A program made the position numbers and the translations under genes. From Psammoneis japonica (Eukaryota): 64,000 bases of DNA. The stretch lies in NCBI GenBank assembly GCA_008632985.1, contig QPGO01000073.1:62001-126000 (forward strand). The letters run 5' to 3'. The notes beneath the pieces were generated by a model. The model was not told the origin of the DNA and searched no databases. It was given only the letters and a program-made list of their open reading frames with translations. Below, piece by piece: positions 2,719 to 57,077 of this stretch (position 1 is the first letter of the stretch; every line of letters starts with the position of its first letter).

Positions 2719-2949
2719 GGTTCAGAGCAGTTGCAGTGGAAGGTTGCTGCGTGTTTCAGTTTGTTGTCGTGTTGCGTTGCCGCTTTACTGTATTATTGTG
2801 CGGCAAAACTCCAAGAGGCAACCGCAGGCAGGCGAGTTCTGCGCGAGCGACGCGAAGCGAAGATGAAGAGCGAGCTCGCACTCTTTTTCTGGTCTCACTG
2901 ACGAAACTCCTCATCTTCTTTTGCAAAAACCATGAAGAAATTAAACCAT

Positions 2950-28173: not shown

Positions 28174-29745
28174 GGTGCTACTGATGCTTCTTATGGTGGT
28201 ATGATTGATATTACAACAACTCTTGGTATATGTCTGCTACTTCTTGCGATTGTCTGCTATGGTACCGTAGCATCGTCGTCACGAGATAGATACGAGTTCG
28301 GAGTCACGAGCGGATCGAGCTGAGAAAATCTTTGAGGTCATTCTCGAAGGGCAATACTCTAGAGTGACCTGTTTAACGGGATTGATTCACTCGATTACAA
28401 CACCCATAATGTCATTAATGAATGTATAATATAAAACCTCTCACGTGACTCGTAGGGCTACAGCAACACGAAGTGGCTGGGGCGGTCCTTCGAAAATTTT
28501 CTCCAAGTCGAAGAGGCATTTCCCCCTTTACCTGTAGTAAAGGCACCGTATTACGTTTAATTTCCGTTGACTGTGATTCTTTTATAATCATTATGAGTTA
28601 GCCGGGGCAGGGCTAGTTGGTCGCGCACGTTTGGGTTCGATGCAGCCGTGCAACTAGCCACACCCTGCAGGAAGAGCTGTTGGTGGCGCGCGAGCAGAAG
28701 CAACAAAGCAAAGAAAACGGCGTGGGTCAAAACGTTGTAAAATGACGCAACAACAAGCAGCGAGAAGAAACCCAACTTGACCCATGAATGCAGCGCGTGC
28801 ACATTGTCCAACCACTTCAACAGTGTCTCGCATTCCCAGCTTGTAGATGAGGGGACGGCGTTCGCGTTTCTCGCCACAGTGTTGTTGTGCGTTGTCGTGT
28901 TGTTTGCGCGCGAAGACCACGGGATCTATTTATCCGACAGTCACTGTGTTTTGGCAATGGCGGATGTTTCACTGTGTGCAATCTGAAGCCATTTTGAGAA
29001 GTGCTTCGCGACAACCCTGTTCGCACCGTCAAATGGAAATTTTTTTTGTGCAGATTCCAGAGTTCTTTCGGGGTGTTCTGTCAGACTTTTGAGTTGGCAC
29101 ACACATGTGTTAAAGGCATTAGCAAAATCAATGATGTGCAATGGCTTCAGAGACCGACACAAATTTATGTTCCATGTAGACCACGTAGATTGTGCACCGG
29201 CGGAAAATCCACGGCATGTCAATCACTCAGCAGCAATTCTGCGTGTGTCCTGCTTGCACCTCACACACATACACACACCTGCACAGTCTAATGACCGCGC
29301 ACACGTGCGCGAGATTGGATGTTTTTTAAAGATGTCCAAACCAAAATTACAAAAGTGGAATGAACAAGTTCATCACTTGCATTGCCGACATGCATCGTTG
29401 AACATGTGTTTCAAAGTCACACGCAAGAAACTGCAGCAGCACAATGACACGTGCCGCCGGTGTCCCACTTTACGACGTGACATCTCAGCGATGCTTGCAC
29501 GATTTCTCCGTTTCTTTTTCAATGTTGGGAGCAATTGCACAATGCATCCCACTGGGTTGGTCTCGTTGTGTGTCATTGAGAATTATGGATTTCTGTTTTG
29601 TCCAAAAAACACTCTCAGAACTGGCAAGTTAGACAGGCGCGTTGACAACAGAATGAACGATCAAAGCATTTTTGACAATGCTGAACACTTTTAACTAAAC
29701 TGTCCAGTGCTGCTGATCACAAGATGGAGCAGGCAAGACGAAACA

Positions 29746-30141
29746 GATGCATTCCAGACGCAGGTGGGAATCCGTGTGACATTGGGCCCGCAAACTTCTA
29801 CGTGCAAGCTCCGCAGCAAAATCACACGGCAATCAAAATGTCAATGATCGCCAACAGAAAATGAGGCAATTTTGCGAACGCACAAACTCGCCCATGATTG
29901 AAGCACATCATTTTTTACTTGGCCAGTTACATTCTTCAGACATTGAAGAATGCAACTGGCGCATTGTTGTTTCTATGAACTTGTCATGTGGAACGTCTGG
30001 GGCTTCGCAAAACAGCGAGTCTGGACAATTTTTTTTAAATGTCACACGTAGAAAGCTGCGTGCGAAACATGCGACGGATGATAAAAATCATTTGTGTCAC
30101 ACGTCAGCACTGCGAGCTCCCACCTGGGGCTGGAACGCGTC
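29746..30141. mobile_element. ~395-bp repeat unit with 24-bp imperfect terminal inverted repeats (MITE-like), copy 1
   Basis: Left end GATGCATTCCAGACGCAGGTGGGA and right end TCCCACCTGGGGCTGGAACGCGTC. Confidence 0.75.
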
Positions 30142-30361
30142 AACAGAGTCTTGTTGGTGCCAAAGGTGTTTGGCACATTAGAGAACCCCAATGCAGTGGG
30201 CCGCTTTTGTGACACCTCTTGGACCACTTCTTCGGTTGCTCTTGCAAAAGTAAAATGCAATGATGACACTGTGCCAACCAATGACAAAATGTCCAATCAC
30301 TGCCTTTGCATGCAGTTGAACAATGCACACTCAGTTCATTGCTTGCACTCGTCAAGCTGCA

Positions 30362-30758
30362 GATGCACTCCAGACGCAGGTGGGAATCCGTGTGACATTC
30401 GGCCCGTAGACTTCCACATGCGAGCTCCGCAGTAAAATCACACGGCAATTAAAATGTCAATGATCGCCAACAGAAAATGAGGCAATTTTGCGAATGCACA
30501 AACTCACCCATGATTGAAGCACATCTTTCATTACTTGGCCAGTTGCATTCTTCAGACATTGAAGAATGCAACTGGCGCATTGTTGTTTCTGTGGAACTTG
30601 TTGTACAAAATGTCTGAGGCTTCGCAAAACAGCGAGTCTGGACAATTATTTTTAAACATCACACGCAGAAATCTGCATGCGAAACATGCGACGGATGATA
30701 AAAATCACTTGTGTCACACGTCAGTGCTGCGAGCTCCCACCTGGGGCTGGAACGCGTC
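30362..30758. mobile_element. MITE-like unit copy 2
   Basis: Colinear with copy 1 and has the same inverted ends. Confidence 0.75.
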
Positions 30759-31154
30759 TGCAACGTTGCGCACACAAGCAGTGGATGCACTCATTGCAGC
30801 TCTTGTTTTTGCACTTGTGATCAGGAACGGTGCAAAAGCAAGTGCATCCAACAATTGGACACACACCAGGTTGAGTTGGTTTGGTCCCTGCCTCGCCCAT
30901 GCCAACACCAGCACCAGCAGAATTGGAGTCAATCGCACGACCAACTTTTTCGCCATGCGACACTCGTGCCGAAAACAAGTTGTTGCCACAATTCCGTTCA
31001 ATGCCATTCATCTGATGGGCATGAAGAAGAGCACCATCAGCGCCCACTCCATCACCAGTTTGGGCCCGCTCTTTCTGTTGCTGAGCTCATTCTGCCGCCA
31101 TTTCCTGCTCTGCTTCAGCTCTGATTTCTTCGTCTCGCTCACGCATGCGATCTG

Positions 31155-33600
31155 TCATTCTGTCCTCTGCACTACTGAAAGCTTTGGCAAAGGCATCCTC
31201 TTCTCCCACTCTTGATTCTGCCATGCTTTCATTCTCAAGGCGTCTGCATTGGCAACCTGGATGTTTCGCACTGCAAGGACAGCGCTTTCGAGTTGCAGCG
31301 CACCGAGGTTTGTTTGGTTCGCACCAGCTTTCAAAAATCCTTTGTCCGACTCGGCACCACTTTTTAGTGTCATTGAACGACTCACCCTGTTGCTCCAAGT
31401 TCCAAGGCTCCACCCCATGGGATCTCCTTTGGCAAAGCAATGCGAGGCATGCTCCTTCAAGCACGCGACACACTTTTCGTGCAAATCATCAAAATCCGAG
31501 TCGGCGCCGAGCGACTCATCTTGCTCTGACAGTGCATTCTCAATAAAGTGAAAGACAGGACTCCACTGAACAGAGTGAACCTTCCTCACCTCTGGTGGGA
31601 GAGAGGAAGGCACAAGGTCTCAAAAAGGTCGCACAACCTTCGTGCCATCAACTGATGCGGTTTGGCCAGAAAGCCAAAATCTCAGGCCTTCCTTGATTGT
31701 TGTTCCCGATGGAAGACGAAATTGCTTTGGAACCATGCATGTTTTGTTGTCACAGCAAAAGGTGGTTTCCACTGGACCATCATCAGAAGCCACGCCAATG
31801 CGGCCGTTTGTGCACGTGTTGCTGCCGCCCGTGGGAAAGGACCGCAAAATGGTCTTGAAACCGTCCAACTCAGAATGCATCATTTGCGTCATCTCCTCCT
31901 GAAAACTTTTGAATGTCCCTTTCAGACGATCACTTGTCACATGTCCAGAATCCCATGCTTTTTGATCTGTCACATCCGACACTGCTGCCACCAACATCTC
32001 CGTCTGCGAGTCCACATTCGCAAGCATCAAATCGGCTTTGCACATCAACTCGCACAGTTGTCTTGCCATGCCGACATGGGGTGGCATCCCAGTGGGGACA
32101 GTCAATGCCCCTTCTGTGGGCTCTGTTGTCACAAGAGATTGCAACTCCCCCAAAAGTCTCCTGTCGTGGAGGATTGACAGCTTCGAAAAGTCGTGACCCG
32201 GCACGCTCACCACAATTTCAATCAGTGACTCGGAATGATGTGTCATGCATGCAAAGCACCACAGTGGAACAGGAACAAAAGTCTTGTGTTCATTTGTCAC
32301 ATTCTCGCCAAATGTCATCATCACACCAAGTTTCACTTTTTCATTGGACATCAGATCTGCAAGCTTCCAATGAGGTGGAAGCATGTCAAATGACGCATCG
32401 TTCGGATCCAAACCCGCAAGAATGCGTCCAAGACATTGGTTGCCAATGCTGCCAAAATGCCAATGGCAATCAAGGACACTCCAGACAGCCCACTCTCCAC
32501 AATGTGCAACAGCTGGAATTGACCGGGGTGAAGTGGTCCCATTCAAGGCTGCAGGTCCCCGAGCCCTTTCGAATGCCACGCGGATTCACACGACTCGGAC
32601 ATGTGTGATTTGTGGTTTCGTCCAAGTGGGCCTGCAAAATTCCAGCAATCTGCTCACAACACTTGGTTGCACACATTCCTTCCTTCACATCTTCATCCAA
32701 AAAGAGAGCATCGTTGCCAACAAACTTGTCACCATGAAGAGCACAATGAACACCCGTGCCTGTCCAAAAGCACATCATCCAATCCAGTGGGTTGGCATGT
32801 GCATTTTTCTCTGAAAGCCTCTCTCCAGACTTGTCGGCCTTTGCTTCTGCACGCTTTCCAATCAAGCTGTGTTTGGAATTCTTCATCCGCAAGGGATCTG
32901 TGGATGTTGACCGGGCCATGAAATTCCACTGGGCAATGGTCCAGAACCACACAAACACGTTGTTGGCTTCTGTGCTCCATTTCAGCATGAGCTTGCACAA
33001 GGAAACGGGAACAGGATCAGCAGAGTTTTCATCTGCATCCCCTCTCTTTCTTGCTTGAGCATGTTCCTTCTTGCACCCAGCGAGGAACTTGTCAAACATT
33101 GCACGGAAGCTCTCAGGCAAGCACTCGTCTGCCATCTTGGCACCCCACATCATGGCGTCTTTGCATTTTTGGATGTCTTCACATGACTTGAGCTTTCCAT
33201 TGGCCTTCTTCTTGTTTGACACTGAGAAATGCAACACAAACTGGTTGTTCATGCCTGCACACACAAGGTCTTCTCGGTGCCGATTGAAGCAGTGCTCAGT
33301 TGGATCACAAAGGTCTTCAGCAGAAACCTCTCTGACGCCAACAGAACAACATTCAGGGTCATTCTCCTTCCAAAACTTGGCCAAACGTGCAAGTCTCTGA
33401 TGACAGTTTTGTCGGCATTTGTCTCCCATTTCCAACTGGGCGGTTTCATTGCACTTTTCGGCGAGGTCGCCAGGCGCTGACAAGTCACCCCCAAGGATTG
33501 GTGCATCATCATCAGTTTCACGCTGATGGGGGTGCATGCATCCACTGTGCCTTCCAGTTCACCCCCCTGGCATGTTGTGTTGTTGACATTGTCAGGAGAT
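31155..33600 (-). mobile_element. Decayed Crypton-like (tyrosine recombinase) DNA transposon ORF
   Basis: WNFMARS (catalytic Arg box), RGIRKGSGT (HxxRKG box) and SIPAVAHCGEW...VLDCHWHF...GNQCLGRILAGLDP...LPPHW, resembling stramenopile Cryptons. Tyr positions read C/H. Confidence 0.72.
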
Positions 33601-34687
33601 GGCAATGAAATGAACTGTTGCTGTTTGTCGGACTCAGATTGTGGGTTGATTGTTGCGATGGGAATGGCGCGAATGGCAGAAACTTTGATGACACAAATCT
33701 TACGAGTCCCGGGAGGGAGTCTTGTGGTGGCGCACAGGATCTTAAAATGCTGGCATGCACTCTGCGCAGAACACACATGGAAAAGACAAACGGCATCATG
33801 AGGCACTCCGGGAATGTCAGAACAGGCTGTTCTAATTTTCCGGAAGTGCCAACCCGGAGGGACGCAGCTCTGGCAGGTTTTTCCACTGGGAAGCACTTCT
33901 GGTGCTTTGGAACATTGGAGCAGAGTTTTTTGACAGTGACGTGTCAGGGTCATTTCTGTTTTGACATTCCCGAAGACCGCGCAATGCTGGCATGACATCA
34001 GAATTGTTGGCGATCATTGTCATTCCCAAACCGTTTTAACGCACGGCCTGACATGCCCACTCCGTCACAACAAACAGCTGATGCCTTTTTATCAACATCT
34101 GCACTTGCCGGAGGAAGTGTCTTGGTTTGCCGTTTTTGGTGGTCCCAATTTTGGAAGCATCAAAAGCAAAAAGATGCCATTTTTTGATGACCTCCAACAT
34201 TGTCGAGTCCGCTGCTTTATCACAAAGCACCAATGGCAGCTGGAGTGGTGCCGCCAATCCCACAGATGGTGGCGGCAATGATCAACTTGATGCATGTTGT
34301 CTGTGACGATGACTCCACCCAAAGAGAATGTTTGGAAAAATGAAGAATCATCTGGCAAAAACCGCCTTTCGTCGGAGTCACGAGTGCCGAAAGGTGATCC
34401 AGCGGCGGAAATCGATGGAGTGTGTGCCAGCAATTTGTGAGCCGAGACAATGGCATTGAATCGGCAACGAGAAGAACATGCTGTGTTGGGAATTCCTTTG
34501 CTGCTCGAGCTGTTTCCTGCTGGGTGAAAAGGGCCACCGTTTCTGCCACGTCGAGAGTTCGAAGCAGCAAACAACACTCAACCACAATCACTTCACAGAG
34601 ACACATCATGACAACAAGAGATTGCCAATCCGCTCAGGAATGCACCAGAAAATGCCATGAGACCAGCAGTGGCATTGTCAAAATGAT

Positions 34688-35086
34688 GAAGGGTTCCAGT
34701 CCTGGGTGGGACTCCGTGTGACATTGGGCCCGCAGAATTCCACGTGTGAGCTCCACAGCAAATTTGTGCTGCAATGAAAATGCAAATGATCGCCAACAGA
34801 AAAAGAGGCAATTTTACGAATGCATCTCCTCCTCCACACACTTGAAGTGCACCATTGGTGGTTTGCCCGGGTGTGTTCTTCAGACATTAAAGAATGTGCC
34901 CAGAGCATTTTCATTCTCATGAATGTTGAAAATGGAAAGCCTTTGGCTTTGCAAAACAGGGAGCATGAAACAATTTCAGAGAATGTGACATGCAGAAATG
35001 TGCGTGCGCAACATGCGGCGCGATCCAAAAAACTGTTGATGTCACAGTGCAGCAGTGCGAGGTCCCACCTGGAGCTGGAACGCGTC
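34688..35086. mobile_element. MITE-like unit copy 3 (more diverged)
   Basis: ggtgggactccgtgtgacattgggcccgcag...aatgatcgccaacagaaaa...tcccacctggagctggaacgcgtc. Confidence 0.72.
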
Positions 35087-35949
35087 TGGCATTGGCGTGC
35101 GCTCACTTCAATGTGCTGCTTTCTGTGCATGTTGTCTGGGTGCATGGACCGGCTGTTGCTTGTGTTCAATTTTGTAGCAATTGCGGCAGCTGCATGGGCC
35201 AATCATCTTGGAGCTGCGTGTGATGTGTGGGATGGTGTGGACGGTGTCACACTCTCACTGTTTCCCCAAAAAAAGCATCATGAATCACTTTCTCACTGAT
35301 GGCACTCGGCACTCGACTTCTTTGGAGGACTCGCCCTGACGGCTGCAGATTGCAAGTTTGTGTCCTCCGTGTGGAATGACACACACAAGACATGTGATGA
35401 TTCACCAATGACAATGAACGTTGACTGCGCTGCAATCGCGATTCTCCCAATGACACACCACCTGCAATTGTTGCAGCAGATCCATTGAACACATTGCCGC
35501 CAAGGGAGTTTGAACACTTTGACATCTCTGCCTGACGCATCATGGTGGCAGTCTTTGTCCCATTTTCTCTTGACTGACGCCACCCAAAGGGACAGTGTCG
35601 AGAGTGATGCCTTCATCCCCATTCTTTGCACAGCGGCTGGTTGTCTTTGCTCGGGAAGGTCATGGGGTGTGACACTCACATCGCTTGAGGACAACTCTCT
35701 CAAACTGCGTCAATGCATTCCGGCTGCACTGAGTTGATCTCCTGCATGCTCAGAGGGCATTGTTCCGAGCTTGATCATGGCAAGAAGTTCAGTTGCAGTG
35801 CTTTCACAGAATTCAGCTTTTTTGCATTGCCTTGAGGCGCGCGATTGTGGATTTGCATGTCAGTTGTGAGGAGATTGACAACGCACATGCGAGTGTGTGA
35901 TTCAGGAGATCTGGCACTCCAATCAAGTTCAAGTTGATCTTTGAAAAAA

Positions 35950-37520
35950 AAATGCTTGATGTGAACAACCTGCCATGCCCACAATTCAAAGACCAAAAGT
36001 CTGCGATCCGTTCATCGCCAAGAAGAGCTGCACCCCTGATGACAAGGAGTGGACCAGGTTGTCGAGGACCAAGATTGTTGAGGTTCCTCCTCAGCCAAGT
36101 GTCGTCATTGGTGGCAGACCAACTGGTCTGACTGCTGCCATTGACTGCAACGAGAGCTGCTTGACCAGCAAAGGAATGGCACAGTTGTGCGAAGCCCAAG
36201 ATGCATTTGCCAAGAGTGGTTCTGTGTTTGAGAGAGCTCAAATGGTTCGCTTGGACCCCGGGCGGGCATTGTCATGCTCCGCTGTCATTTGTGCACTGGT
36301 TTTTCAGAAGCATGTGCTCCTGCAGGAGGCAAGATTGATTCTCATCTCGGAAACACTTTGCAAGTTTATTGAGTTCCCTGCACTCAAACGGTTTGCTTGG
36401 ACCCCGGGTGGGTGTTGTCATGCTCCGCTGTCATTTGTGCACTGGTTTTTAAGAAGCATGTGCTCCTGCAGGAGGCGAGATGGATTCTCATCTTGGAAAC
36501 ACTTTGTGAGTTTATTGAGTTCCCTGTGCATCGTTTCACATCTTTGTGCTGCTTCAGAATGCTCACAATGGTTGTCATGTCCTGTTGTTGAAATGCAGAC
36601 CAACGCATGGATTCATGGAGATCACAAAGATCTTGAGAACACGCTCCATTTGGAAGTGAGCAAGATGGGCCAACAAATCATCGAGTTGACAACAGCGGCG
36701 CTAGATGCAAAAGATCCACCACCCATGGAGGATGGAGGACATTGAATGCCGTCGGGAACTTGGTCCGGACCAGCTGAGAACTGGTGCAGAGTGTGAAGTC
36801 TGCATTCGTGCTGAGGATGTCATTCGCCCCTTCGTGCTTGTGAGAATTGATTTGCATGGAGGCGCACATGCCTCCAAGCCTCTTGACCCTTCCAAAGAAG
36901 ATGTCAAAGCTTTGCAAGCTTCACTGCCAGCTGTTTGCCCCAAGGGCACCAAGCAGAAGGGCAGTCCAGTGACGGGGGTCATGCGCATGACCGGTTCAAC
37001 CTCCACTTGAAGGGACGTTGAACAGCGAGGCTGTTCAGGGAGGAACTGGTGCCAGCTGCAGAGTTGATGGTGTTTTTGTTTCACCCCAACCATCCCTGTG
37101 ATCGCGGCATTGACTGACTCCACTTCAAGGTCATGGAGAGCAATCAGGATCTTGACAACGTTGTCTCCAGGGACTGTGGATGACAAAGCACGCCATTTTG
37201 ATGGCTCCAAGAGGCATGGAACTCAACAAAAGCTTCGTCATGTGCCTTTACAAGCAACTGAAGAATGCCACCATGGACGAGTTTGTCCAGCAAATCAGAA
37301 ATGAGAAGTGCACCCAAGTGACATGCTCTGACAAAGAGTCTCAAGGCCCATGCTGAAAGTGTGGAAGTCCCAGCCGTGCAGCGGTGTGGCAAGGTCAACA
37401 TCATGCAACAAGTCACCAAAGACACAGGAAGGCAAAGACGAAGATCTCTTGGATGAACCGTTGGAAGATTCAACAACAGGATCATCATCGGGTGACGAAC
37501 CAGCCAAGGGACATTGAGTC
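35950..37520 (+). pseudogene. Decayed FAD-dependent oxidoreductase-like host gene fragment with ~147-bp internal tandem duplication (36241-36385 / 36386-36530)
   Basis: VVIGGRPTGLTAAI (degenerate GxGxxG), EAQDAF and ERAQMVRLD. An apparent intron runs from ~36507 to ~36598. Confidence 0.5.
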
Positions 37521-39540
37521 TTCAAGCATGTGTTCTTTCTGCAGTGGATTTGTCATCGTCCGTTGCTCCCAACACTCCATTCTGCAAATTTGGATTTGGG
37601 ACGACTCCTGCCGACAGTGGCAAAGCTGTGCAGAAGTTGTGCACAACCAAGCCTTGAGTCTCTGTCTTGTCAGATGTGGAGAAATTTTGTCTGACTGTGA
37701 CTGCTGCTGTCAAGAGCTCTCTGCACCAGCACACAATTTTTCCAAATGCGACAACGCTGCTGCATCGGCGCTTTCTCCAAACCTTGAATTTGAGACAATC
37801 AATGGCTGGTGCATTTTTCTTTAGGATGATTTTAAATGATTTCAATTTCTCACCCTCATGGTTGTTGCCACTCGCCTTTAGAATGACTGCACTCCCTGAT
37901 GAGGTGAGTGACATTTCCCCGAAGGTTGCAAGTTGTGGCATGGAGTGCACCACCTGCTCACAATGATTTGATTCTCAAATGGTGTTCAGCTTTGTTGCCG
38001 CCAACTGTTGCGTCTTCTTCAGTGCTTGACACTTTTCTCAACTGCACTGCACCGCAACTTGGTTGTTGCTGTCTTGAGGGACTGTGGCTCAACGAAGAAA
38101 AAGAGGTGGACTGGGCTGGTTCCACTTTTGTGCACGTCGTGCGTGTGTCACCGGGCATCTGCCTTGTCTTGCCCTTCCAGCAGTGGGATTGACGGAGCCC
38201 ATGTTTTTGAAACTTGGTGAGAAGCTTTCATCCCGCAGCAGGAATGTGCACCCGACAGCTTTGCAGCCCACACATTCAGCGTGCTTCATCAGGATTGGGA
38301 CAACCTGATCTTGAGCTTCCAGTGCCCCTGTGGCCCTGTGCCAGGGTTCTGCACATGTCAACTCCATTTTTTCAAGGCAAACGGCTCCACCTCGTGCTCA
38401 CCCCAGTGTCGGGTCTGCCACCCCTCTCACACAGGGCAGGTGCAATGACGTGTCATCTCCTGGGTGCCAAAGGATTGAGCACAATGCTCGCTGCGGTCTT
38501 GACTGAGTGCAAAATCCCAATCCATTCAGATGACATTGCCAACCTGGCGATTGTTGCAGAGGCTGTCAAGGTGCCAATCAATCCTTTCGAATGGGATTTG
38601 CTGCATTCTTGGGGTCGTGGAAGTGCCACTCTCACACTTTCTTGGCATTCCGTCCAATGCTTTGAAACTTGTGGATCCTGGCATTTCATTTGATGTTGCT
38701 GACATTGAACTTGACAATGGCTTTAGTTCGCCTGACCATTTTGATGGAAGGGGGCATTCCAGGCTTGGATGCAATTGTGAATGCAGGACAGTGTAAACCA
38801 TGTGTTGCACTCCACTGCTCGCTTTGCTGGAGAGCTGGAAACGCGTTGAAAGCCCCACAGCTCTGCCAGCATCGGTTGCAAGCAACATCTCCAAAGTGTC
38901 ACTTCGTTTCTTTTTGGGAAGGACAAGTTGAAGAGCGGCGATGATTTTTGGTGCTTCCAAGAGGCAAGAATGGAGAGAACGAGAAAGAGGGTGGGTTGGT
39001 GTGGCAACAGACGAATCAGGAGTTCTAGACCACGCGAGTTTAACTCAAGCGTGGATGAAATTGCAGCAGCAATTGTGAACGCAGAACGCAGATGGTGGCG
39101 ATGATCTAGTGCTGTTGTGTCAATGGAGGAAAATCACACTCGAGCAGAACCGAATCCAGGGAACAATTGTCCTTGCAGTGTGCTGGCACAGAAAGTCAAG
39201 AACTGCATTGTGTTTCATCATAAATGAATTGTGCCTTGTCCTCCAAAGACAGGTTTCAAAAGCAGACTATTTCCAAAAAAGTGGGTGTCTTGGTTGAACT
39301 TCCAACTTCAATTTTCCTTGGCGATGCCAAGAAGAAGGCAGACAAAATCAACCAAATCATCTTTCTTCTTCCCCAAAACGGCAACATTTTCCACGGGAGA
39401 GACGGGATTGTCTGAAAAGCCTCTGGCATCCAACCGGTTCGCAATGCTCCACAGCTTGGGCTTCGTCAACCCATTTGCTTGCCGAAATTCGCGCAGGGGT
39501 GCCGTTGTCCCTTTGCAGATGTCTTCCTGTGTGCAGGTTT

Positions 39541-39783
39541 TGACAGAAAATGAAGGTGACTGGGTGGAAGAAAACAACAACTCCTTGCTGCTGCCTGAAC
39601 AGCAGATGAGTCTCCGTGCAGAGACCGTTGCAGGAGCCGAAAGACTGGTGTCGTGATGTCGGCACTGCTGTCATTGTTCTTGTGAGCCGAGTGGCTTGAA
39701 AGCAAGCTGCATCGCGCAACGCACGCAGAACTGAGAGCACACACACTTGTGTGACAAACTAAAATCTTGTTCAAATCCTGTCA
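39541..39783 (-). repeat. 3' LTR
   Basis: TG...CA ends, adjacent to the PPT, paired with 43705-43948. Confidence 0.93.
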
Positions 39784-39957
39784 CTCCCCAGTTTGCTTGA
39801 GGGGTCAACAGCAATGGATTCAAAGTCGGATTGGTTGAAAGCCTCGGGATCAAAGTTCCAAAACATTAGAGGACAAAGGAGGCTCCAATGTTTGGGAGTG
39901 ACCCCAATGCTTGCTGAGGATGTCAGCTGGGTTGCGGGAGCCTTCGATGAAATGAAG

Positions 39958-41730
39958 CTAAAGGAAACCGGAGGCAATCGCCTCACGCACACGATGGAAT
40001 GAGAGGACGGTGTGTTGCTTGTCTAACTTGGAGTGCGGGATGGCAGCACTGTCCACAACCGACTTGTTGTCTCCAAACATGTGACATGTTTCACGAATGG
40101 GAACGCCAAGGTGACGCAAAGTGATGCACAGATCAATGATCTGCTCAACGCATGTCCTTGCGGCAACAAACTTGGATCCACACGCAGCGGTCTCAACTGT
40201 TGCTTGTTTCTCAGAGAACCAATCAGCCGGAAACTTGTTGAGGAAATGGAGGATGCCGGTGACAGAGCGTCCAGTGAGCATGCAATGGAACAAGTTCGCA
40301 TCAACGCAGTGTGTGGTGGTGAGAAACTTGCCAAGCAGCTTGGGTGCATCTTGCGGGAGCAGCTCTTCTACCTCCCCATGCACAGATTGAGCCCAGTCAC
40401 ACACGGGCTCAGGGAGGTCCGAACAGCCGGGCTCCTCGGTGCGCACTCGGAGGGCGCCATGATGCATCTTGGAGAGGAATCCGCAGATGCGTTTGGCGCG
40501 GTCTGGGTGGCCTTGACGGGGTGCTGCACGGAAGCCAGAAAGGGACATGACAGCCACAGCAATGTCAATGTGACCTGGAGATGCGGCCCATTGCAGGGAT
40601 CCAATCAAGGGTTGGAATTGGTGGATGCCATCCGGTTTGAGCAATTCGGAGGTGTCAAGCTCAGGGTGGTCACCCTTGTCAAGGGGTGAAAGCACATCAG
40701 TGCGGGGCTTCTCCTCAAAAAGGTGCACACAGTTGTCAACCATGTGCCCAGTGTGCTTGCAGGGAGCAAGGCACAGGGTGCCGTCTGGGTCACGGGTGAA
40801 GTCGCAGCCAAGATGGAACTCCAATGGTCCAGTGCCCTTGAGCTTGAACTTGTGTTTCTCCATGAGGGTGTCTGCAAAAGCCTGGGGGTCCTTCATGGCA
40901 AAGGCCAGGTCATCCACACACACTGCCATGCATTCGCAGTGGTCACCATTCCTGCGCAGCCAGATGACGTGTTCAGCTTTGCATGGGAAGAAGCCTTCAG
41001 CATGCAAGCAATCAACAAAGCATTCATGCCATCTGAGTCCGGAGCTGCGGAGTCCATGCAAAGCCTTGTGGATGACAAGGATGTGTCCTTCCAGGCCGCC
41101 AAACTCGGGGCCTGCTGTGATGTGCAGTTTCTCTTTGGTCGCAGCTTCGAGGCAGGCGTTCCCAATGTCAGTGGCCCAGGTCTCTAGTTCGTTGAGTTCA
41201 GCCAGGAAGATCATCATTCGCAGGCCACACAGAGACACTGCTCCGGAATGGACACTGTCGACGGGCACGTCTGTGAGGTGTCCATTGGCAACAAGCCTTG
41301 CTTTGTGCCACCCGTCATGTTTGACGTCACAGACGAGGTGCACCCAGATCTTCTTGTGTCCTGATGGAGCACTGGAATCCTCGTGGTGTCCACAGTCGTG
41401 GAAGACCTTGCACTCATCAAGCTGAGTCATCTTGAGGTCCGTTGCGCCTCCCCACTTGCAGTTGCCATTGCGCTCATCAAGGGCCATGGCATGCTTGCAG
41501 TCCCGTGGCACTTCACACCCATGCTTGCATCGTGGCGCAGCATGAAAGGTGCATGACTTGGCTTGGTTGGCCATGCAGAATGGCTTCTTCTGGCGAAGGG
41601 CTGTCTTGCGAAAACATCTCCATCCTTTGGTTTCTAGAAGGCCGTGCTCACGCACGCAGATGGCACAGGTTGTGGGGTCGTCCTTGGCAATGATGGCAAG
41701 GGGTTGGACGTGATCTCCCCATTCTCCCAT
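39958..41730 (-). pseudogene. pol: Copia reverse transcriptase-RNase H, inactivated (YVDD reads CVDD)
   Basis: HKARLVANG, DIGNACL, KALHGLRSSG, VCVDDL, VDANL, GRSVTG, FGDNKSV. There is no Tyr in 590 aa. Confidence 0.93.
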
Positions 41731-43704
41731 TCAAGCATGATGTTGCAGCTTGAGCCTTTCCAAGAGGGATCATGGGGTTGCAATGGTCCTTCGTGCGATG
41801 CAATGCACTGGAACTTCCAGAGGGTGGTGTCCTCGTCTTCTTGCTCAATGTGGTGCATGATGTCATTGCAGGCCAGCAAGTGAACTTGACCAGTTCAGGA
41901 TTGCCTCCAATTTTCCAGTTGTGGTCCTCAACGGCTTTGACGATGCAGGCTCTGTGGCATTGACCATCCTCTTGTGTCTTCATGAGGAAGGTGCATCCGA
42001 TGACATCCTTGGGGTCAAAGACCGGCATTTTGGGCATCCTGATTGCCTCCCCATCTGGTGAATCTGGCAAATCCTCGGAGTCGTGGTGGGATTTAATGAC
42101 AGGGTCAGCAGTTTTCTCATCAGGAGGATCAAGATGCAGGTTTGGAGCAGACGGATCACGGGCAGAGTGCACGTTGGAACGGCAGAAAATCTTCTGAGTG
42201 TCATCAGAAAGCATCTTGAATGTCATTTGGTGACCAATGTGTTCGGCGATGCCAACGAAGTGACTGCGCAATTCATGAGATTTGGACAGCCAGTCGGAAT
42301 CATCCAGGTGGCAGCACACGGGTTCCCACCATTGAAAGCGGAGGAGTGGGCTGATGTCAGGAGTGGAGCCGGATGGCACCTCGGCAGGGTTGCGCCAGTG
42401 GAGCTTGGCTGACGCCATGTGGTTGAGCACAAAGCACACGCACATCAGGGTGAGCAGTCAGGTGCAAGGCGGGGACTCAAAGCAATCCATGATGGTGTTG
42501 GCCATGGTCTTCACAGTTTGGCAGTGGTGTTCAGCAAAATTCTGATGCTGGTGGTGAGGCTCGCTTTGCCAACTAGAGATGAAGAGGGCACGAAAGATGC
42601 CAAGAACCTTGTTGCTGATTTCAACCTGAGCACGGTCGCTGATGAGCTTGGATGGGGCACCGCGGTTGCGAATGTTGTCCTCGAGGGTGTTGACAAATTC
42701 TTTGTCAGTTTTGGTGCCATGCACGTCAGTGACGAGAGATTCCGTGCCGACAAAGAGCTGGGTGCTGGTGCAACCAGAGTCAACAGCAGGGGTGTCGGAG
42801 CAGACCGTGTTGGCAGCAAAGGGTTCATTGCGTTGGTGGACATTGAGAGCCAGGTTGGGCGATTTGTGTGCCTTTTTCAGGTGCGTGCTGGCTGGCATGC
42901 GGGCGTGCTGCATTGTGCAATCAAAAGTGCGGCAGACAGTGTCCTTCGGGAGAAAGCCAAAGCAGGGGCAGAGGGACTCAAAGTCGGGATCCTTGGGATT
43001 GAGTTCGCGCTCATGGCATTCACAGAAGAAATCAGATGTCGGGAGCAGGTGATCATCAAGGACGGAGCCTCTTCAAGCATGGCGTTGTTGGCAACCGGTT
43101 GCTTGATGACCTGGGCTCGAATCCTGGGTGTTGCATTTTTCAAGTCGTTGGGTCAGATTTGGTCTAGTTGGTCAATCTTGATTAAATCCTGTCATGGTGC
43201 GATTCTCAGAGTGACGCACGCGTCTCTCTGTCTCAAAAACAGGGCATGCCCACCTCGGGGGGATGGCATTGTCGGGAAGCCCCCGTGAAACCATTGGGGC
43301 AGAACAGGGTGTTGCCGGTGTGCAGAGGGCAACCGTCAGTTCAGCGCACTTTGAACGAGGGGGGCGCAAAAAATTGCCCAGGGAATTTGGAATCTGTCAG
43401 TGATGCAGTCAACATCGGTGCGCTGTGGGGAGAGCCATGCATTGCGGCGAGAGTCTGCATTTGGGCCCTGTCTTCAACTCCGGCATCGAAGATGCAAGTG
43501 GGTCCCTTGACAGCAGTGGAGCTTTGTGAGAGGAGCGATTCAACCCACCCTTCCAAATGTTCCTGGGCAACTTAGAAACCTTTTGGGGGCGATTCAGGGA
43601 CAGCCACATCAGACAGATTTGTGACATGTGGGGAGTGACAGAATTTGAAGAAGAACCAAATGCCGGTGTGTCACTCTCTGGCTGAAACACATCCAGTTGC
43701 TGTG

Positions 43705-43948
43705 TGACAGTTTTGAAGATGACTGGGTGGAAGAAAACAACAACTTCTTGCTGCTGTCTAAATGGCAGATGAGTCTCCATGCAGAGACCATTGCAGGAGC
43801 CGAAAGACTGGTGTCATGATGTCGGTGCTGCTGTCATCATTCTTGTGAGCCGAGTGGCTCAAAAGCAAACTACATCGCGCAACGTGCACAGAACCAAGAG
43901 CACACATGATTGTGTGCCACAAACTAAAATCGTGTTCAAATCCTGTCA
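43705..43948 (-). repeat. 5' LTR
   Basis: Paired with 39541-39783 and followed by TSD GGTTT. Confidence 0.93.
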
Positions 43949-45493
43949 GGTTTTGCAGTCAAGTTCTGGGAGTTCAAAATGGCCAGACGGACTCAACAGC
44001 AACGCTCTCTTTTGATGAAGAGCGGCTTGATCATGTGCCAAATCCTTGCGCAGCTCATCCACCTCTTGCCCCATGGTTTTGAGTTCTCGCTTGAGGTTCG
44101 CGCGGCTCGCCAAAAGCATGCGGATGTTTTTCTTTTTCAGTTCCAAGCTCCTTTCCATCTCAAGGATCTCCTTGAAAAGCCTGTCTTGTTGGTCTGGTTG
44201 CGCACCGGCACCATTGGAGTTGGTCAAGTGTTGGTGTGGCTGGAGGGGGATCGGGGAGGGCATGGGAGGGAAAAACTGATTTGCATGAGCAGCTGCTGCT
44301 GGCGCCGGTGCAGAGCACTGGCAGTTGGCAGCTGCAGGCAGTTGGCAGCATCATGGTGGTTGGCAGCAGCAGGATCAAGATGCGGGCTTGTGGCACCCAG
44401 GGCCCTGAGGCAGCGGCACTCGCAATGTCGCAGAAGCAGTCAGCGTTGCAGGGCATGCCATTCACAGTCTGGCTGCTTGCACCAAATGCCGTCTGCCTGT
44501 CTGTCTCAAAGATCGTGGCTGCCGGGCGGCAGTGGAGCCGTGCCCGTCTGGTCACCTGTCAACCGGACCGATGGCGTGAATCCCGCGAACGAGCCGTTTT
44601 GGTTTGGAGCTTGACCACGATGCCCGTCCCCAGCTTGACCATCTTGCATGACGCCGACCAGCCGTTCAAAGACACTGCGATTGGGAGTCTGCATGAAGCT
44701 GTTCGGTCGACTGGGTCATGGTGAACCAAAGCCGTCAAGCAAAGGGGGCAGAAACGCCGACTGCTGCGACGGCGACGAGCCGTTTTGGTTTGGAGCTTGA
44801 CCATGATGCACGGAGCCTTGCCGCGCGGAGTGCTGCTGCAGGTCAAAGCCACCACCAATGTGCTGGAAGTTGTCATTCACATGATTGAGTTGTGGCAAAC
44901 CAATGCCATTGAGCAAAGGGGATGACAATGCCGACCGCTGCGACGGCAACGGATTCAAAAATGCGTTGTCTGAGCTGTGCGGCGAGGGCTGGTGGTTCTG
45001 AAACAAACAATCAGCAAACGACAACAAATGCAAGAGACTGTGTGTTCAACCGACGCGATGGGAAATGGTGAAAGAGACGGGTGTGCACCATTGTGGTTTC
45101 AAATGTTGCGTGTGTTGTGTTTCAAACTTCATGTGTTCTGTGTGTCAGAACGCGAGCTGGGAAAATTATGAGAGAGAAGCAGTGATGCTTTTGAACGCGG
45201 AAAGACCTCGAAGCCGACGGCCGCTGTTTTGAAAAATAACGGCAGAATTCGGATTTGGAGCAACGGCCATGAAGAGGCAAATTGTGTCTTGGTGGCGGCT
45301 GACGCGCCTGCGTTGACTTTGACAACGTCTTTGACGTCACGCTGATTCTAGGTTTTCGAGGTAAACGATTCGAAAATTGCCCTGAGAATGTTTTGACGAC
45401 GGAAGAAGCGCACGAGCTAGATTATCTTGCAATCTAGCATTCAAGCCCTTATCATTGTCAAAGATAATTTTTGAGGGACTACTATAACATCTA

Positions 45494-51839: not shown

Positions 51840-54800
51840 GAGCCTTGCCGGTGGCACCATTGAATGAGATCTTCTTGCAAAGAACTGAGCATTCATCACA
51901 GAGAATGCAGTTGCTGGCGCATCCGCTCCTGTCGTGGTTTACGTCCATTGTGCCATCTTCAAAGGACGGGACAAAGTCGGTCTGTGACAAGGTGAAACGG
52001 CAAAAGGTGCACACGCCCAGCCCAATGCCAGGAAAAGGACCTTCATCTTCAACATGGTGGGTCATCAAGAGGTGGCTTCCAGTCATGACAAGCCATGCAA
52101 TCGTGCAAGGCGGCAGTCTCGCATTCGCTTCAACATCGGGCATGCGAGTCGTCTTGCTGTTGCGTGTTTCACCAGCTGCAATTGCAATGGACTCGATCAT
52201 GCAGGAGACCACTCCGTCGCCTTGCTTTGACCGCCACAGTGCATGCATGGTTGAGTCACCTGCAGCAACGGCTGCATCTTCAACTGTGTGTCGTGCCAGA
52301 GGCGCTCAATCCTTTGGTGCACAGGAAATGCAAGTCTGCTTGTCCCTCCAATTTCCATGCATGGATCCATTCTGTAGAGGGTTGGGGGCAGCACAGTGCA
52401 GCACAACAATCCATTGGAATGGTGGAGATTGTCCGTGACCCAACTGATGGTGCCTGTCAAGAACCGAATGACTGGGACAAAGCCCAGTTCTGCTTCCCCG
52501 ACAATTGTCATCGGTTTGTGTGTCGAGAATCCGAGTCACATTGTCCGGTTCAGAACAGACAGTCACAACATTCCCATTTGGAAGCACGGCGCTTGGTTCA
52601 ACAAAATTGAACAAAACCAAAATTCTACATTTAAAGTGCTGCTGCGCTTCCACCCTGCAACTCCGGCAACAAGCTGGCCCACACCCCCAGTGCACGCAGG
52701 TCCAATGAAATTAGTGAAGCACTGTTTCAACAGAATTGTGTTCATGCGCAGAGACAAGAGGCGAGGATGAAGAATCATCTGCATGGAAGTGCCAGGCAGG
52801 TGTTGTGGGAAGCCATTTGAAACATTGGTCACCAATCAAGCACCAAAGTCGTTGTCCACAGCATGATTTGCAGCCACTGAAGACAACAGAGACAGCACCG
52901 TTTCTCCGGAAGCTGCCAGAAACTCTTTCAAAACCAAGGCGCTTTGGCAAGGTCCATGAAGGATGCGATTTTTCGAAGACAACCATCATCCAACTCGGGT
53001 GGACGACGCGGCTGCATGCTCTCATTGTTCTCCTTACAGTTGTTCATTCTCTCGCATCACGAGTCAAAGGCCAATGCAGTGCATGGTGACTTTTTTGTTG
53101 TTGCTCATGATGTGTTGCTTTTCTTTGTTTTCTTCGTTGCTTCGCTTGGTCGTTTTTTGGTCGTTGGTTGACCGGTCGTTGGCGCTCTTGATTGCAAACT
53201 CCGCCGTCATGCCTTGTTTCAATTGACGTGTGAATGCACATAAAAGACAATTGAAGAAGTTGAATGAGTCGTCGCTTGTCCGTCACCACATTGAGCCAAC
53301 ATTTTCAAATCATGGTCCAAGTTTCTCCTTCCACTGGGCCGCTGGAATCTTGTGCCAGGAAGTGAAAACTCTTTGTTCTGCTGACTTCCAAAAGTGCTCT
53401 TCACATGGCCCCCAAATGTGCCAGGAAAAACATGCAGCACATCACGGGGTGCCACTGTCACTTGAACTTTGGGCATGGGAGCACCTGATGCAGTGTTTGT
53501 GCATGAAAAAGAGCTTGTGGCAGACATGGCATGAGAACAACAAGCAAGCCAGTCACAGAGCCACAACATGAAATGACTGGGACAAAGGTGCAATGCTCCC
53601 ACTGCTTTGTTTCACCTGAGCCAAAAGGATCTCACATGAGCCAGGCACAAGACTGTCAAAGAATGAGGGCAACTTCTTCAGTTGGCAGCAACACCCAAAT
53701 CTTGGTGAAGACAAGCAGCCAAGAGGTCAAAAGAGCAAGACAAAAAGATCAGCCAGTTGGGCCTCAGGTGATTGCTGCAATTTGATCCAGCAGAAAAGGC
53801 AAAAGGGCACTTCACCTGCTGTGAGAAAGGAAAAGTGGAGTGTGTGCTCTTCAGCATCATGTCAACACCGAGACTGTGATGATGTGCACTTGGCACTTTT
53901 AAAATCCAGCACCCTTTAAAAAACAGCCTGAAAAGTCAGCGCCTTTTTTTCTTTTTTAGCACGTTTTGAAAAAGACGTGCAAATCTGGCACCTTTTTAAA
54001 AATTGAGCACCTTTGTGGCAAAGGTTGCAAGTGGGCAACATCACATCAAACAAAGGTGATGGAATTCAATCCATTCAATAATTTGATGTCATGACGGTGA
54101 TGTGTGTGATCAATTCTGACAGTGACCATGGTCCAGCTGCACCAAGTGCTGACCACATTGATGCTGTTTTAAACCTGTTGCAATGTCACTCAGTCCTTGA
54201 CAGCTCAACACACATGACATTTACACTGGTGCAAGAGAGAGAAAGCAGATGCTTCATGCAAAACATGGAGCTTCTTTTGACACTGCAATTCTGTGCTCGG
54301 GAGTGCCAGTGGCCTTGAGGTGATCATGCCAAAGCAAAACCAGTGCAATGTTGTTGCAGTTGATCTCATTGTCAACATGACTCTTGTTTGCATGTGTCTG
54401 CAGAGTGGCACTCTGAAGCCACCCCACACCTGCATTTCCATCGGAGATGCACTCAGCCAGAATCTTTGGCAACACAAGCCTGTTTGCTGTGCTGTTGTCT
54501 CCAGTGGCAACCAGTGCATTCAGTGAAGAGATTGCAAGACATTGTGTGCAATTGTCTGGTCTCTCTCAAGAGCGGTGGGAAAATCCATTGCACATCCACT
54601 TTGGTGGCATTGCTTGTTGCCACAAGAGCATGTCCAAGCATGGTGCTTGTTTTGTTGAAAAGGGTGAGTCAAAAACCAGTGCCACAGTCCTCAACACCAA
54701 AGCCACACAAAATGCCAGCACAATCTTCGCTCTTGTCTCCAGCCTTTTGGTGCGCCATTTGATGTGGTCAATCTTGTTTGTACTTGACCATGCAACAGAG

Positions 54801-56880
54801 ATGTTCCACAGCTTGCATTTTCCAAAACCACACTGTTGCTTTGTCTTTCCATTTGCTTCCCTCTTAGATTGTGTGCCATCATGGACATCTTGGCTGCTGC
54901 ACCATCAAAGTTGTTGGGCTGGTGGGAACCAGCATTCATGGAGAAGAGCTCATCTTAAGCATCGACTTTGGTTTTTGGTTCGCTGCTTTGCCATCAATCA
55001 AGTCATTGATTTTTTGTTGGCACCCCCATGCATGGCACCAAGGCAAGTGGCATCACCAGCAACCGTGCCAACAGCACTGTGGTTGGAGAGCAAATCTCAT
55101 GGGGGCAAGAAAGAATGGCAGCAGACCAACAAGACAGAGAATTGTGAGATTGTTGTTGTCAAATGGAAGCAACTTTGACTTGGCATGAAAAAACATGCTG
55201 TTTCCTTTTGCTGGAAGGGGACTCATCTCCATTTTCTGTGGCACCCAGTTGGGCAGCAATGCAACAAACTGCACCAGCAGTGTGCTTGCCAGTTTGGCAG
55301 CATCACCACCAATCACACCAAGAGCTCCATTGGTTGGGAGAGGAAATCTCAAAATGGAGCAACAGATGAGCAAGACAACAAATGTGAGATTGCTGTTGTA
55401 AAAAAAAGCAACTCCAGGCCCAGCATGCAAAAGACTTGCCATGTCAGTTCCATGGATTGACTCAAGTGGAAAAATGGCCACCACCATCATGGAAAACAGC
55501 AATGGAATCTGCTGGAGGTGACAGCAAGTGTCTCTCATTGGAGTGTGCTGCTGTCATGAGTGCATTGCAAATGTCAGCAAGCATGCTGCTTGGTGGCATG
55601 CTTCAAAACAGCATGACAATCAACAGCAAAAAAATCCAACATGCCAATCAAAGAAACACTGTCTTGTTGTCATGTGATGGCACTTCCACCCGGTTGATGA
55701 CGCAGCTGTGGACGTGGGAGACGAGGTTTTGTTGCCATTGTCATTGCGTGTTGCAGTGTTGGGTGCAAGCTCAAGTTGTGACATCATGCACATGCTGTGA
55801 AATGTGCAGCTTTTCCATGTGGGTGATGTTTGTTTTTTGCATGTCAAAACCACCCAAAGCTGCTCCCTGATGTGTGGGTTCTTATTTGCCAAAGCCAGGT
55901 GATTTTGCTGCACCCAGCCAGCCAACTGCCAAGCTTGAGAGTGCACTGGCACACCTTTCCATTTGGCCAGTCTTAAATTAAGACTCAACAAGCATGTGCT
56001 GCTCTCATCAAAAGCATGCCTTGATTCTTGACAGAAAACTCCAGGTGAGAGTGCGCGCCAGTGCACTTTGAGATGCTCTGGATGCAGGTGGGAACCCGCG
56101 CAATTCTGGGCCCTCAGAATTCTGCGCACAAGCTCCACAACAAAATCATTTGGCCACAAACACACCAATGATTGTCAACAGAAAAAGGGGCAATTCTGGC
56201 CACATCCAAATGCATGCACGCCTGCACGAGGGTGCACCCATGCTCATGTTTGTTCTCACAAATGGACAAAATAAAAGGGCTGGGCCATGCAAAACAGGGA
56301 GCATGAAACAATTCTGCAGAAAAGACCGCACAAAATGCACATGCAGGACACACAGCATGCAACAACAAAAAACACTCTCTTTCATGTCATGCTCGAGCAG
56401 TGCTGCAAGCAAGACCCCTCCCATCCGGGGGGCTGGAGAAAGCACTTTTCTGGTTGACTCATGTGATGACATTAATTTCAGTGCTTTCATGCTGGTGGTT
56501 GGCTGCAAATGCACACCAGCAAAAATGACCAAAGCCCTTGTTGCTGCGCTGCCTTGTCTGGTGAAAATCTTGCCTGGAGGCCTGGCGGGAATTTTTGTTC
56601 CCCAAGCCTGATGCATGTTCTGTCCCAGGGCCACATTGTAAGTTGCAAATGGTGACTTTTGCAGTCAGCTCCTTCCTTGTGTGGTGACGTCTCACTGAGG
56701 ACTCAGTTCCACTGATGTTGTCTGAGATCCGCTGTGTTTTGGACAGAGGGCATCACACGCATGTGCCAGCTGCAGCATGAGATCGGATGTTTCAATCAAC
56801 TCAACCCTGGTCAACGGTCGCTGCCAATCTGATTGGTTGAAAGTCTTGGGATGTCAACTCCGATTCTCATTCCAACGGAC
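51840..56880. other. Hypermutated repeat domain D (TpA- and CpG-depleted)
   Basis: TA is nearly absent except in TTTAAA-like runs. Cys/His-rich ORFs occur in six frames and a MITE-like copy is present. Confidence 0.85.
56072..56440. mobile_element. MITE-like unit copy 4 (highly diverged)
   Basis: gatgcaggtgggaacc...gggccc...agctccaca...aatgattgtcaacagaaaaaggggcaatt...tcccatccgggggctgga. Confidence 0.55.
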
Positions 56881-57077
56881 GCACGAATGACTACGTAGTG
56901 TCGTACTGACAGTATAAATTCACGTAGTATTCTACACAAACTTGCCACCGCTTCTGACACGCGATGTCGCGCCGCGGTTCTTCACACTTTTTTACTTGCA
57001 TCCTCAACATTCAGCCACAACATTGACCTGGAGATATCAACGTTTGTATTGACAACACATTCCAACAACACTTCATT

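Follow-up and report, generated by a model that had tools for sequence, protein, structure and literature searches.

How can a retrotransposon lose every tyrosine of its reverse transcriptase (RT) while the reading frame stays open? The question is raised by a 64,000-nucleotide stretch of the Psammoneis japonica genome (assembly GCA_008632985.1, contig QPGO01000073.1, positions 62,001 to 126,000 of the forward strand), here called the window and numbered from its first letter. On its minus strand, at 39958..41730, lies a Ty1/Copia-type RT/RNase H open reading frame (ORF) of 590 amino acids from stop to stop, with 33 cysteines (5.6%), 42 histidines (7.1%), no tyrosine at all and four TpA dinucleotides. 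The answer is very probably a domain-wide hypermutation of A:T to G:C in a diatom, specific to TpA, acting on both strands, governed by the flanking bases and accompanied by CpG decay.

The RT frame and its element

The first-pass annotation took this ORF for a Copia RT/RNase H frame devoid of tyrosine. This is borne out by a match to the Pfam domain RVT_2 (PF07727; residues 121-317, E 2.8e-20) and by the translation itself, in which all of the strings quoted by the annotation are found (VCVDD, DIGNACL, KALHGL, VHSGAVS, THCVDAN, TAACGS, LRHLGV, SLCGLR, DGWHKARL, WHECF and DKQH). A large protein collection yielded 1,311 homologs at E<=1e-5, the best of them 58-66% identical, and among the 120 homologs listed are polyproteins of ~1,850-1,920 amino acids carried on 5-8 kb contigs. 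The ORF was aligned with 118 of these 120 relatives, the top-ranked P0001 and P0002 being omitted as apparently internally duplicated. These two consist of internally duplicated RT fragments with normal tyrosine, on contigs of 1.86 and 1.28 Mb from another public assembly, and are probably mis-joined gene models spanning tandem or nested Copia copies.

Intact relatives carry tyrosine at the positions in question, their motifs reading YVDD, NAYL, KALYGL, VYSG, HYVDAN, TYGS and RYLG. Over the same segment, tyrosine makes up 4.63% of the relatives' residues (range 2.87-5.78, n=118) against 0% in the window ORF, while cysteine stands at 1.20% in the relatives and 5.59% in the ORF, and histidine at 3.62% and 7.12%. 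At the relatives' tyrosine frequency, the probability of finding no tyrosine in 590 residues is 7e-13. None of the 19 columns with tyrosine in at least 80% of the 118 relatives is kept (10 have become Cys, 7 His and 2 Phe), nor is any of the 28 with tyrosine in at least 50% (14 Cys, 10 His, 4 Phe). The replacement of conserved tyrosines by Cys or His, described by the annotation from the motifs, thus extends to 24 of 28 columns. Every other residue class in this alignment is retained at 59-100%, whereas tyrosine is lost completely. Neither of the observations that the annotation had named as refuting, C or H at these sites in intact relatives or a tyrosine loss no faster than that of other residues, was made.

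The nucleotide composition is equally skewed. The ORF has no TAT, TAC or ATA codon and no codon junction of the form T|A, and its four TpAs, all in the context NTAG, compare with a mean of 91 (55-122) in 15 intact relatives. Its observed/expected (O/E) dinucleotide ratios are 0.06 for TpA, 1.82 for TpG, 1.52 for CpA and 0.55 for CpG. The annotation had proposed a change of TpA to TpG or CpA, and these ratios and codon counts uphold it, as do the repeat pairs and polarised differences described below. It had also proposed a parallel decay of CpG, which finds support in the CpG ratio and in the arginine columns: 22 of 33 are kept, and the 11 losses are to Cys (6), Trp (2), His (2) and Gln (1), all products of CpG decay.

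In all likelihood, the ORF encodes the RT and RNase H of a decayed long terminal repeat (LTR) retrotransposon of the Ty1/Copia type. A pol remnant at 39892..43066 on the minus strand is colinear by tblastn with residues 764-1832 of the intact 1859-aa relative P0003. It comprises an integrase-like part, RT and RNase H, is spread over three reading frames and carries an in-frame TGA at 42458-42460. No gag-protease (residues 1-763) was found by tblastn with two intact relatives of 1,859 and 1,916 aa, and no Pfam match to the rve domain was obtained with the window pieces, nor with the intact relatives P0003 and P0008. The annotation took the element to have been inactivated by missense changes in an open frame; the RT frame is indeed open, and the element as a whole is structurally damaged as well. 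The element may be akin to the diatom Ty1/Copia elements known as CoDi, given its RVT_2-type RT, a pol colinear with Copia-type polyproteins of ~1,900 aa from marine contigs and its diatom host; the window copy differs in having no gag-protease and in the loss of all tyrosines. The CoDi elements are the Ty1/Copia groups of Phaeodactylum and Thalassiosira.

The pol remnant is bracketed by two LTR-like repeats, both on the minus strand. The upstream repeat (43636..43948) is 313 bp long, starts with TGACAGG, ends with CTGTCA and has terminal inverted repeats of ~19 bp. The downstream copy (39551..39783) has 235 bp in common with it (43714-43948) at 88% identity, beyond which it is cut short or has been replaced; immediately 5' of this copy on the minus strand, at 39784-39790, is a purine run (GGGGAG). 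Seven of the 19 difference events between the two copies are doublets in which one copy has CA and the other TG. Neither a target-site duplication nor a primer-binding site was identified at these repeats. We read them provisionally as the LTRs of a deletion derivative.

Reach, direction and flank preference of the TpA loss

The loss of TpA is not specific to the RT ORF, but covers three TpA-poor blocks amounting to 22 kb of the 64-kb window. Block 1 (2943..6146) has 5 TpA in 3.2 kb; block 2 (31000..45166), in which the Copia element lies, has 42 in 14.2 kb; and block 3 (51941..56891) has 23 in 5.0 kb. A zone of many-copy repeats at 28738..30999 is partly depleted (TpA O/E 0.15-0.28). Overall, 70 TpA remain in the 22,322 bp of the blocks compared with 1,649 in 38,273 bp of host DNA, or ~7% of host density. 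Counts per 500-bp bin are 0-5 in the blocks and 6-38 (mostly 13-35) outside, and the edges are sharp, each falling inside one such bin. The TpA O/E is 0.0-0.1 in the blocks, ~0.6 in host DNA and 0.42 over the whole window, with TpG and CpA O/E in the blocks rising to 1.3-2.2. The G+C content at 38-46 kb is 0.50-0.55, against ~0.45-0.49 in most host DNA.

CpG is affected more variably, with an O/E of 0.3-0.95 in block 2 and of 0.04-0.2 in much of blocks 1 and 3, where it falls as low as 0.07 and 0.04, respectively. At 3501-5500 and 53501-56000, it is 0.04-0.18, below that of the Copia block at a similar TpA loss. The loss of CpG therefore does not run parallel to that of TpA in every block.

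Why the frames stay open follows from the direction of the change. A conversion of TpA to TpG or CpA makes no stop codons and removes TAA and TAG, so that the RT frame and many other ORFs in the blocks are open; of the two processes, only CpG decay (CGA to TGA) can add stops. Across six frames, the region 31-45 kb has 663 TGA, 38 TAA and 31 TAG, whereas host DNA at 7-28 kb has 819, 368 and 393. Of the 247 ORFs in the window that reach 90 aa, 130 lie wholly or partly in the blocks. Both strands are hit, since tyrosine has gone to cysteine 14 times and to histidine 10 times in the RT ORF, and TG is about as frequent as CA in every block (1471 and 1383 in block 2).

The direction of change was assessed against other sequences. 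Contigs from the same run (one public run) were aligned to 28000-46500, giving 10,646 matches at >=88% identity and, at the places that differ, 514 transitions and 57 transversions. Polarity was assigned for the best-supported 40 of 582 variant places, which lie mostly in one repeat zone. The window has TG or CA where the other contigs have TA at 22 of these 40, and the reverse occurs at none. At 8 of the 40, the window has TG or CA and the others CG, and at 4 it has CG and the others TG or CA; the remainder are transversions (4) and other changes (2). In the partly depleted zone at 28738-30999, other same-run copies retain TA where the window has TG or CA. Repeats within the window give a second view: six repeat pairs in the blocks contain 33 CA/TG doublets in 1,672 aligned bp, against 1 in the 4,388 bp of six duplicate pairs in host DNA, and a CA in one copy facing a TG in the other implies that one ancestral TA was resolved differently in each. 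Finally, 80 related metagenome loci have TpA O/E values of 0.33-1.15 (median 0.73), every one of them at least 0.33; these are the best-scoring and mostly intact loci, and so are no gauge of how frequent hypermutated Copia elements are elsewhere. On the combined reading of same-run contigs, repeat-pair doublets and metagenome loci, TA is ancestral and the changes postdate the separation of the copies.

The process may not be confined to repeats. Single long contigs with 3-11 differences and a summed depth of ~50-78 cover 35062-39586 and 43860-46500, while the summed contig depth over the Copia and LTR parts runs to thousands. Summed contig depth is no copy number, and the contrast is only a hint that the process reaches DNA that is not obviously repeated.

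The TpAs that survive are far from a random sample (R is purine, Y pyrimidine). Among survivors, RTAY occurs once and YTAR 42 times, whereas host DNA has 520 RTAY and 246 YTAR (p 5e-19). Relative to host DNA, the share of TTAA among survivors is increased 7.9-fold (~57% survival), that of CTAA/TTAG 3.2-fold and that of CTAG 2.6-fold; ATAT and ATAC/GTAT have no survivor (0% survival), and the mixed flank classes fit a simple additive one-flank model. Because TA is its own complement, survivors alone do not reveal which flank decides. The products are more informative. The RCAR/RTGR ratio is 1.29 in the blocks and 1.08 in host DNA (p 0.001), and all four regions agree in the direction of this difference; Y occupies the +1 position in 16 of 22 polarised sites (p 0.12); and tyrosine outcomes in the RT ORF and the Crypton-like gene described below are 11 Cys to 4 His after Y and 12 to 10 after R (p 0.31). 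A mutated A in the context 5'-T-A-Y-3' is the reading that these figures favour. With TAY as the target, the tyrosine codon would be an ideal in-frame substrate, with tyrosine fully lost and Ile, Asn and others thinned.

Other elements within and beside the blocks

A second mobile element in block 2 has suffered the same loss. The gene remnant at 31308..33552 on the minus strand belongs to a Crypton-like tyrosine-recombinase transposon with 692 relatives in a representative library, and none of its 16 ancestral tyrosines is kept (9 Cys, 4 His, 3 Arg); where relatives have VLDCYWHF, for instance, the window has VLDCHWHF. The process is therefore not tied to reverse transcription. The AlphaFold model of a homolog, P0243 (predicted local distance difference test score, pLDDT, 73.8), has Ndc10, Cre, XerA, Flp and QRICH1 as its best matches in the PDB, with probabilities of 0.85-0.99 and weak E values of 7e-3 to 0.5, and a sequence-profile search of the PDB with the Crypton-like alignment gave rows at chance level only (E 0.17-0.58). 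A Pfam scan of 11 Crypton-like homologs found no domain in 10, an RT domain in none and Peptidase_C48 in one. CryptonS DNA transposons have been described from oomycetes and a diatom, and Peptidase_C48 is among the domains described for them (PMC3212892). As judged from the model and these domains, the second element is a candidate member of the CryptonS tyrosine-recombinase transposons.

Tyrosine-poor Crypton-like proteins are also found on other public contigs, as four clusters comprising five proteins (P0372, P0348, P0359/P0391 and P0357) on ENA and JGI contigs of 1-4 kb. They have 0-1 tyrosine, Cys and His at 4-8% each, and C, H or F at the tyrosine positions of intact relatives. By this residue pattern, the same hypermutation footprint is present in other public assemblies.

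Block 2 also holds, on the plus strand at 34694..35088, one member of a repeat family of many copies, ~400 bp long; two more members lie at 29744-30141 and 30360-30758. Also in this block, at 36237-36526, two tandem units of 146 bp (92% identity) are set apart by 2 CA/TG doublets and 5 changes of CpG type. A DENN-domain fragment of a host-type gene, without tyrosine, lies at 38211..38690 on the plus strand, within a low-depth TpA-poor segment (35404-39105). Its Pfam match is above cut-off (PF02141, E 3.8e-7) and 28 of its 30 Atlas hits are DENN proteins; a search with this ORF for longer homologs found none at E<=0.001. Beyond the upstream LTR-like repeat, the DNA at 43949..45166 is free of TpA and of low contig depth, and one contig (44565-46500) bridges the block edge. 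Direct repeats with a spacing of 174-186 bp occur in this tail, in the stretch 44562-44951 (44589-44626/44775-44812 and 44709-44777/44883-44951), and an ORF there matches RNHCP below threshold (22.8 bits, cut-off 24).

The Pfam scan of the blocks took in 118 ORFs of at least 90 aa (12 lying under the RT ORF were omitted), 55 shorter ORFs and 7 rescans. DENN alone was above cut-off, a match to Fz reaching 17.2 bits against a cut-off of 32.1, and the scan detected no viral genes. Blocks 1 and 3 gave no Pfam match and have no similarity to each other; their content is unclassified. Tandem units of ~100 bp, 67-71% identical, are present in block 1 at 5149-5854.

Outside the blocks, an intact short-chain dehydrogenase-like ORF at 6342-7124 on the plus strand, recognised by eye from the motif TGANRGIG, begins ~200 bp beyond the right-hand end of block 1, so the hypermutated domain stops before a normal gene. 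A neighbouring ORF of 863 aa was confirmed as a GH31 glucosidase in the Protein Atlas, which gave no useful taxon, and its named best hits are all from diatoms (Attheya, Seminavis, Nitzschia, Odontella, Pseudo-nitzschia and Thalassiosira; 55-66% identity, 66% being the highest overall). These hits agree with the diatom host that the first-pass annotation had assumed; the collection has no closely related named diatom, and the host is not Bigelowiella. Host DNA also contains two tandem duplications (16349-20841/20856-25442 and 7206-9567/12163-14521) with 69-86% identity and normal TpA, which carry unclassified paralogous long ORFs such as 17085-18275/21451-22569 on the minus strand and 18773-20227/23084-24741 on the plus strand. 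These duplicates were the control in the comparison of repeat pairs; since they have normal TpA at 80-86% identity, duplication as such is no trigger.

Candidate explanations and known systems

A single process would account for most of these features. After its insertion, the Copia element and its whole neighbourhood would have been swept by a dinucleotide-specific mutation process that turns 5'-TA-3' into TG or CA, that is, A into G on either strand, with ordinary decay of CpG to TpG or CpA alongside. It would have acted on chromosomal DNA domain by domain, and not on single genes. TAY being the tyrosine codon, a change of the sense-strand A would give cysteine and a change of the antisense-strand A histidine, and the loss would take in both the YxDD box of the RT and the tyrosine-rich catalytic region of the recombinase; frames would stay open and long ORFs would appear in all six. 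The agent could be a targeted DNA adenine deaminase, converting A to hypoxanthine, which is read as G, on silenced or foreign DNA. We infer such an enzymatic process, its targeting to silenced or foreign DNA and its role in defence from the pattern as a whole. tRNA adenosine deaminases act in the context U33-A34-C35, which resembles TAY, and this likeness would point to an enzyme derived from ADAT/TadA.

A process of this kind has been described in the alga Bigelowiella natans. In a 2026 preprint, mutation-accumulation lines of B. natans were reported to acquire, in two integrated viral regions, ~6e-7 mutations per site and generation, of which nearly all were A>G or T>C and every one was at TpA; 324 TpA-poor coding sequences were enriched for RT and DDE domains, 124 TpA-poor clusters were counted, and the authors propose an ADAT2-like DNA adenine deaminase in a defence resembling repeat-induced point mutation (RIP) (bioRxiv 10.64898/2026.01.13.699255). 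The signature in the window matches this TpA-specific A:T>G:C hypermutation. Both convert TpA to TpG or CpA on either strand, in regions of foreign DNA, and leave clusters poor in TpA and rich in CpA and TpG; within the 64-kb window, too, the changes are A>G or T>C at TpA and are restricted to regions of foreign or repeat DNA. The two differ in several respects, as far as the main text of the preprint goes. B. natans is a chlorarachniophyte (rhizarian), whereas the host here is a diatom (stramenopile). The DNA affected there is viral, while here it comprises Copia, Crypton-like and unclassified repeats and flanking low-depth DNA. In B. natans, the nucleocytoplasmic large DNA virus region stands at 0.45 and the virophage region is still TpA-rich, whereas the blocks here are near saturation (O/E 0.0-0.1). 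A flank rule is seen here; the preprint's main text uses none of the words trinucleotide, context and flanking. Lastly, the mutation rate was measured directly in B. natans, whereas the diatom offers a sequence footprint alone. No report of TpA-directed hypermutation in diatoms was found in the literature searched, a search whose scope excluded most subscription journals.

Fungal RIP likewise inactivates repeats by saturating transitions in one dinucleotide context, is chromosomal, affects both strands and can leak into unique DNA. Its changes are C:G to T:A, however, mostly CpA to TpA, so that it enriches TpA and creates stops, whereas here TpA is destroyed and stops are removed; and its target is duplicated DNA, whereas here the host tandem duplicates are untouched. 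RIP proper is rejected on the direction of change. Editing by ADAR or APOBEC in animals also leaves deaminase-type transitions clustered in mobile elements, and ADAR favours a 5' U, but these enzymes act on RNA or single-stranded cDNA with strand asymmetry and within the element, whereas the changes here fall on both strands and reach into a DNA transposon remnant and flanking DNA. ADAR-type editing is accordingly rejected as well, since the strands are hit alike and DNA other than retroelements is involved. Deamination of 5-methylcytosine alone is rejected since it accounts for the CpG loss only.

The alternative that survives best, though we consider it unlikely, is a passive bias, in which silenced, methylated and late-replicating chromatin accumulates spontaneous or repair-linked changes at TpA without a dedicated enzyme. 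The CpG decay in the blocks is what methylated DNA would show, whole domains are affected, including DNA covered by single long contigs, and the window has yielded no enzyme. It is difficult to reconcile with such a bias that ~7% of TpAs survive while transversions and other transitions are few, that the flank rule is so strong (p 5e-19) and that the edges lie within a few hundred base pairs. In B. natans, moreover, according to the preprint, the signature is 1000-fold above background and appears in some lines only, which points to a regulated activity.

A change before integration, by which the retrotransposon RNA or cDNA was edited (by ADAR-like A>I conversion or a cDNA deaminase) and then inserted, is less likely again, and indeed very improbable. 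The 5'-neighbour preference of ADAR would produce A>G after U or T, as the preprint's text notes (bioRxiv 10.64898/2026.01.13.699255), and the most striking case in the window is a retroelement. The two strands are nevertheless hit about equally; the same loss is seen in the Crypton-like recombinase gene, whose relatives have no RT domain, in the DNA of the DENN fragment and for 1.2 kb past the LTR-like repeat; the LTR-like copies differ by CA/TG doublets; and the favoured 3' neighbour looks like a pyrimidine, whereas that of ADAR is G.

It is hardly credible that the blocks are foreign or compositionally distinct DNA that has always avoided TpA, through selection against UpA or through origin in a TpA-poor donor. 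The host TpA O/E is already ~0.6 and related loci go down to 0.33, but none of the 80 loci goes lower, at 22 of the 40 best-supported differences the same-run copies still have TA, catalytic and invariant tyrosine positions have been replaced, and the contig that bridges the block edge has similar depth on either side. An assembly or sequencing artefact, with A miscalled as G after T in some regions, can be dismissed with the same assurance: the only run that carries the stretch may be the assembly's source, whose agreement would then not be independent, but Logan contigs agree with the window (3-11 differences over 495-2,596 bp), the sharp edges coincide with repeats, and further ENA and JGI contigs encode Crypton-like proteins that lack Tyr and show the same replacement by Cys and His.

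Several points weigh against a hypermutation of resident chromosomal DNA by a TpA-directed deaminase, or against parts of that account. The polarity classes come from few and clustered places, as noted above. It is uncertain that the two 235-bp repeats are the LTRs of a single insertion, given that the DNA between them is ~2.2 kb shorter than in intact relatives and that the downstream copy is truncated; the argument drawn from them for a change after integration is accordingly not watertight. The low-depth segments could be ancient repeats of low copy number, their other copies having drifted below the 88% identity cut-off. Which flank decides, the 3' Y of the A or the 5' R before the T, is weakly resolved (p 0.12 and p 0.31). 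Three ancestral tyrosine codons of the Crypton-like gene (33105, 32853 and 32580, minus strand) read CGT (Arg), more than a single TpA step can give, since the T and the A of one TA must both have changed (T>C and A>G); a further step from CA or TG to CG is one possibility and residues peculiar to the lineage are the other, and no such change to Arg is seen in the 28 tyrosine columns of the RT ORF. The deaminase itself is deduced from a footprint within a 64-kb window and not from an enzyme, hypoxanthine or a rate.

With these points in mind, TpA-directed hypermutation is the account that we favour, and a more ambitious form of it can be put forward tentatively. Diatoms may possess a defence similar to RIP but of opposite chemistry, in which a locus-targeted DNA adenine deaminase acts at 5'-TAY-3' on either strand and erases tyrosine codons together with TAA and TAG, in silenced transposons and in the DNA caught between them; such a system might be common to diatoms and chlorarachniophytes and hence old within the stramenopile-alveolate-rhizarian (SAR) supergroup. 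Just as tentatively, a deaminase of this kind would disable RTs (through YxDD) and tyrosine recombinases without stops, and would raise the local G+C.

The footprint has practical consequences for annotation, since the blocks yield long, stop-free and Tyr-free ORFs in six frames, which gene finders and protein databases will take up; Tyr-free Crypton-like ORFs are already in public collections as hypothetical proteins. A natural TA-specific DNA adenine editor, if this is what the footprint records, would be of interest for base editing, and the flank rule (RTAY lost, YTAR kept, with TAY the probable target) is a specificity to seek in candidate deaminases. The range of DNA affected, from retrotransposons and DNA transposons to trapped unique sequence, argues for targeting at the level of chromatin domains. 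RIP has long been regarded as a fungal speciality, and for an adenine-based counterpart the literature so far consists of one preprint on one alga. The diatom would be the second lineage, and what is new here is the host group, the degree of saturation, the variety of DNA affected and the flank rule. If true, the process extends beyond Bigelowiella to major marine primary producers.

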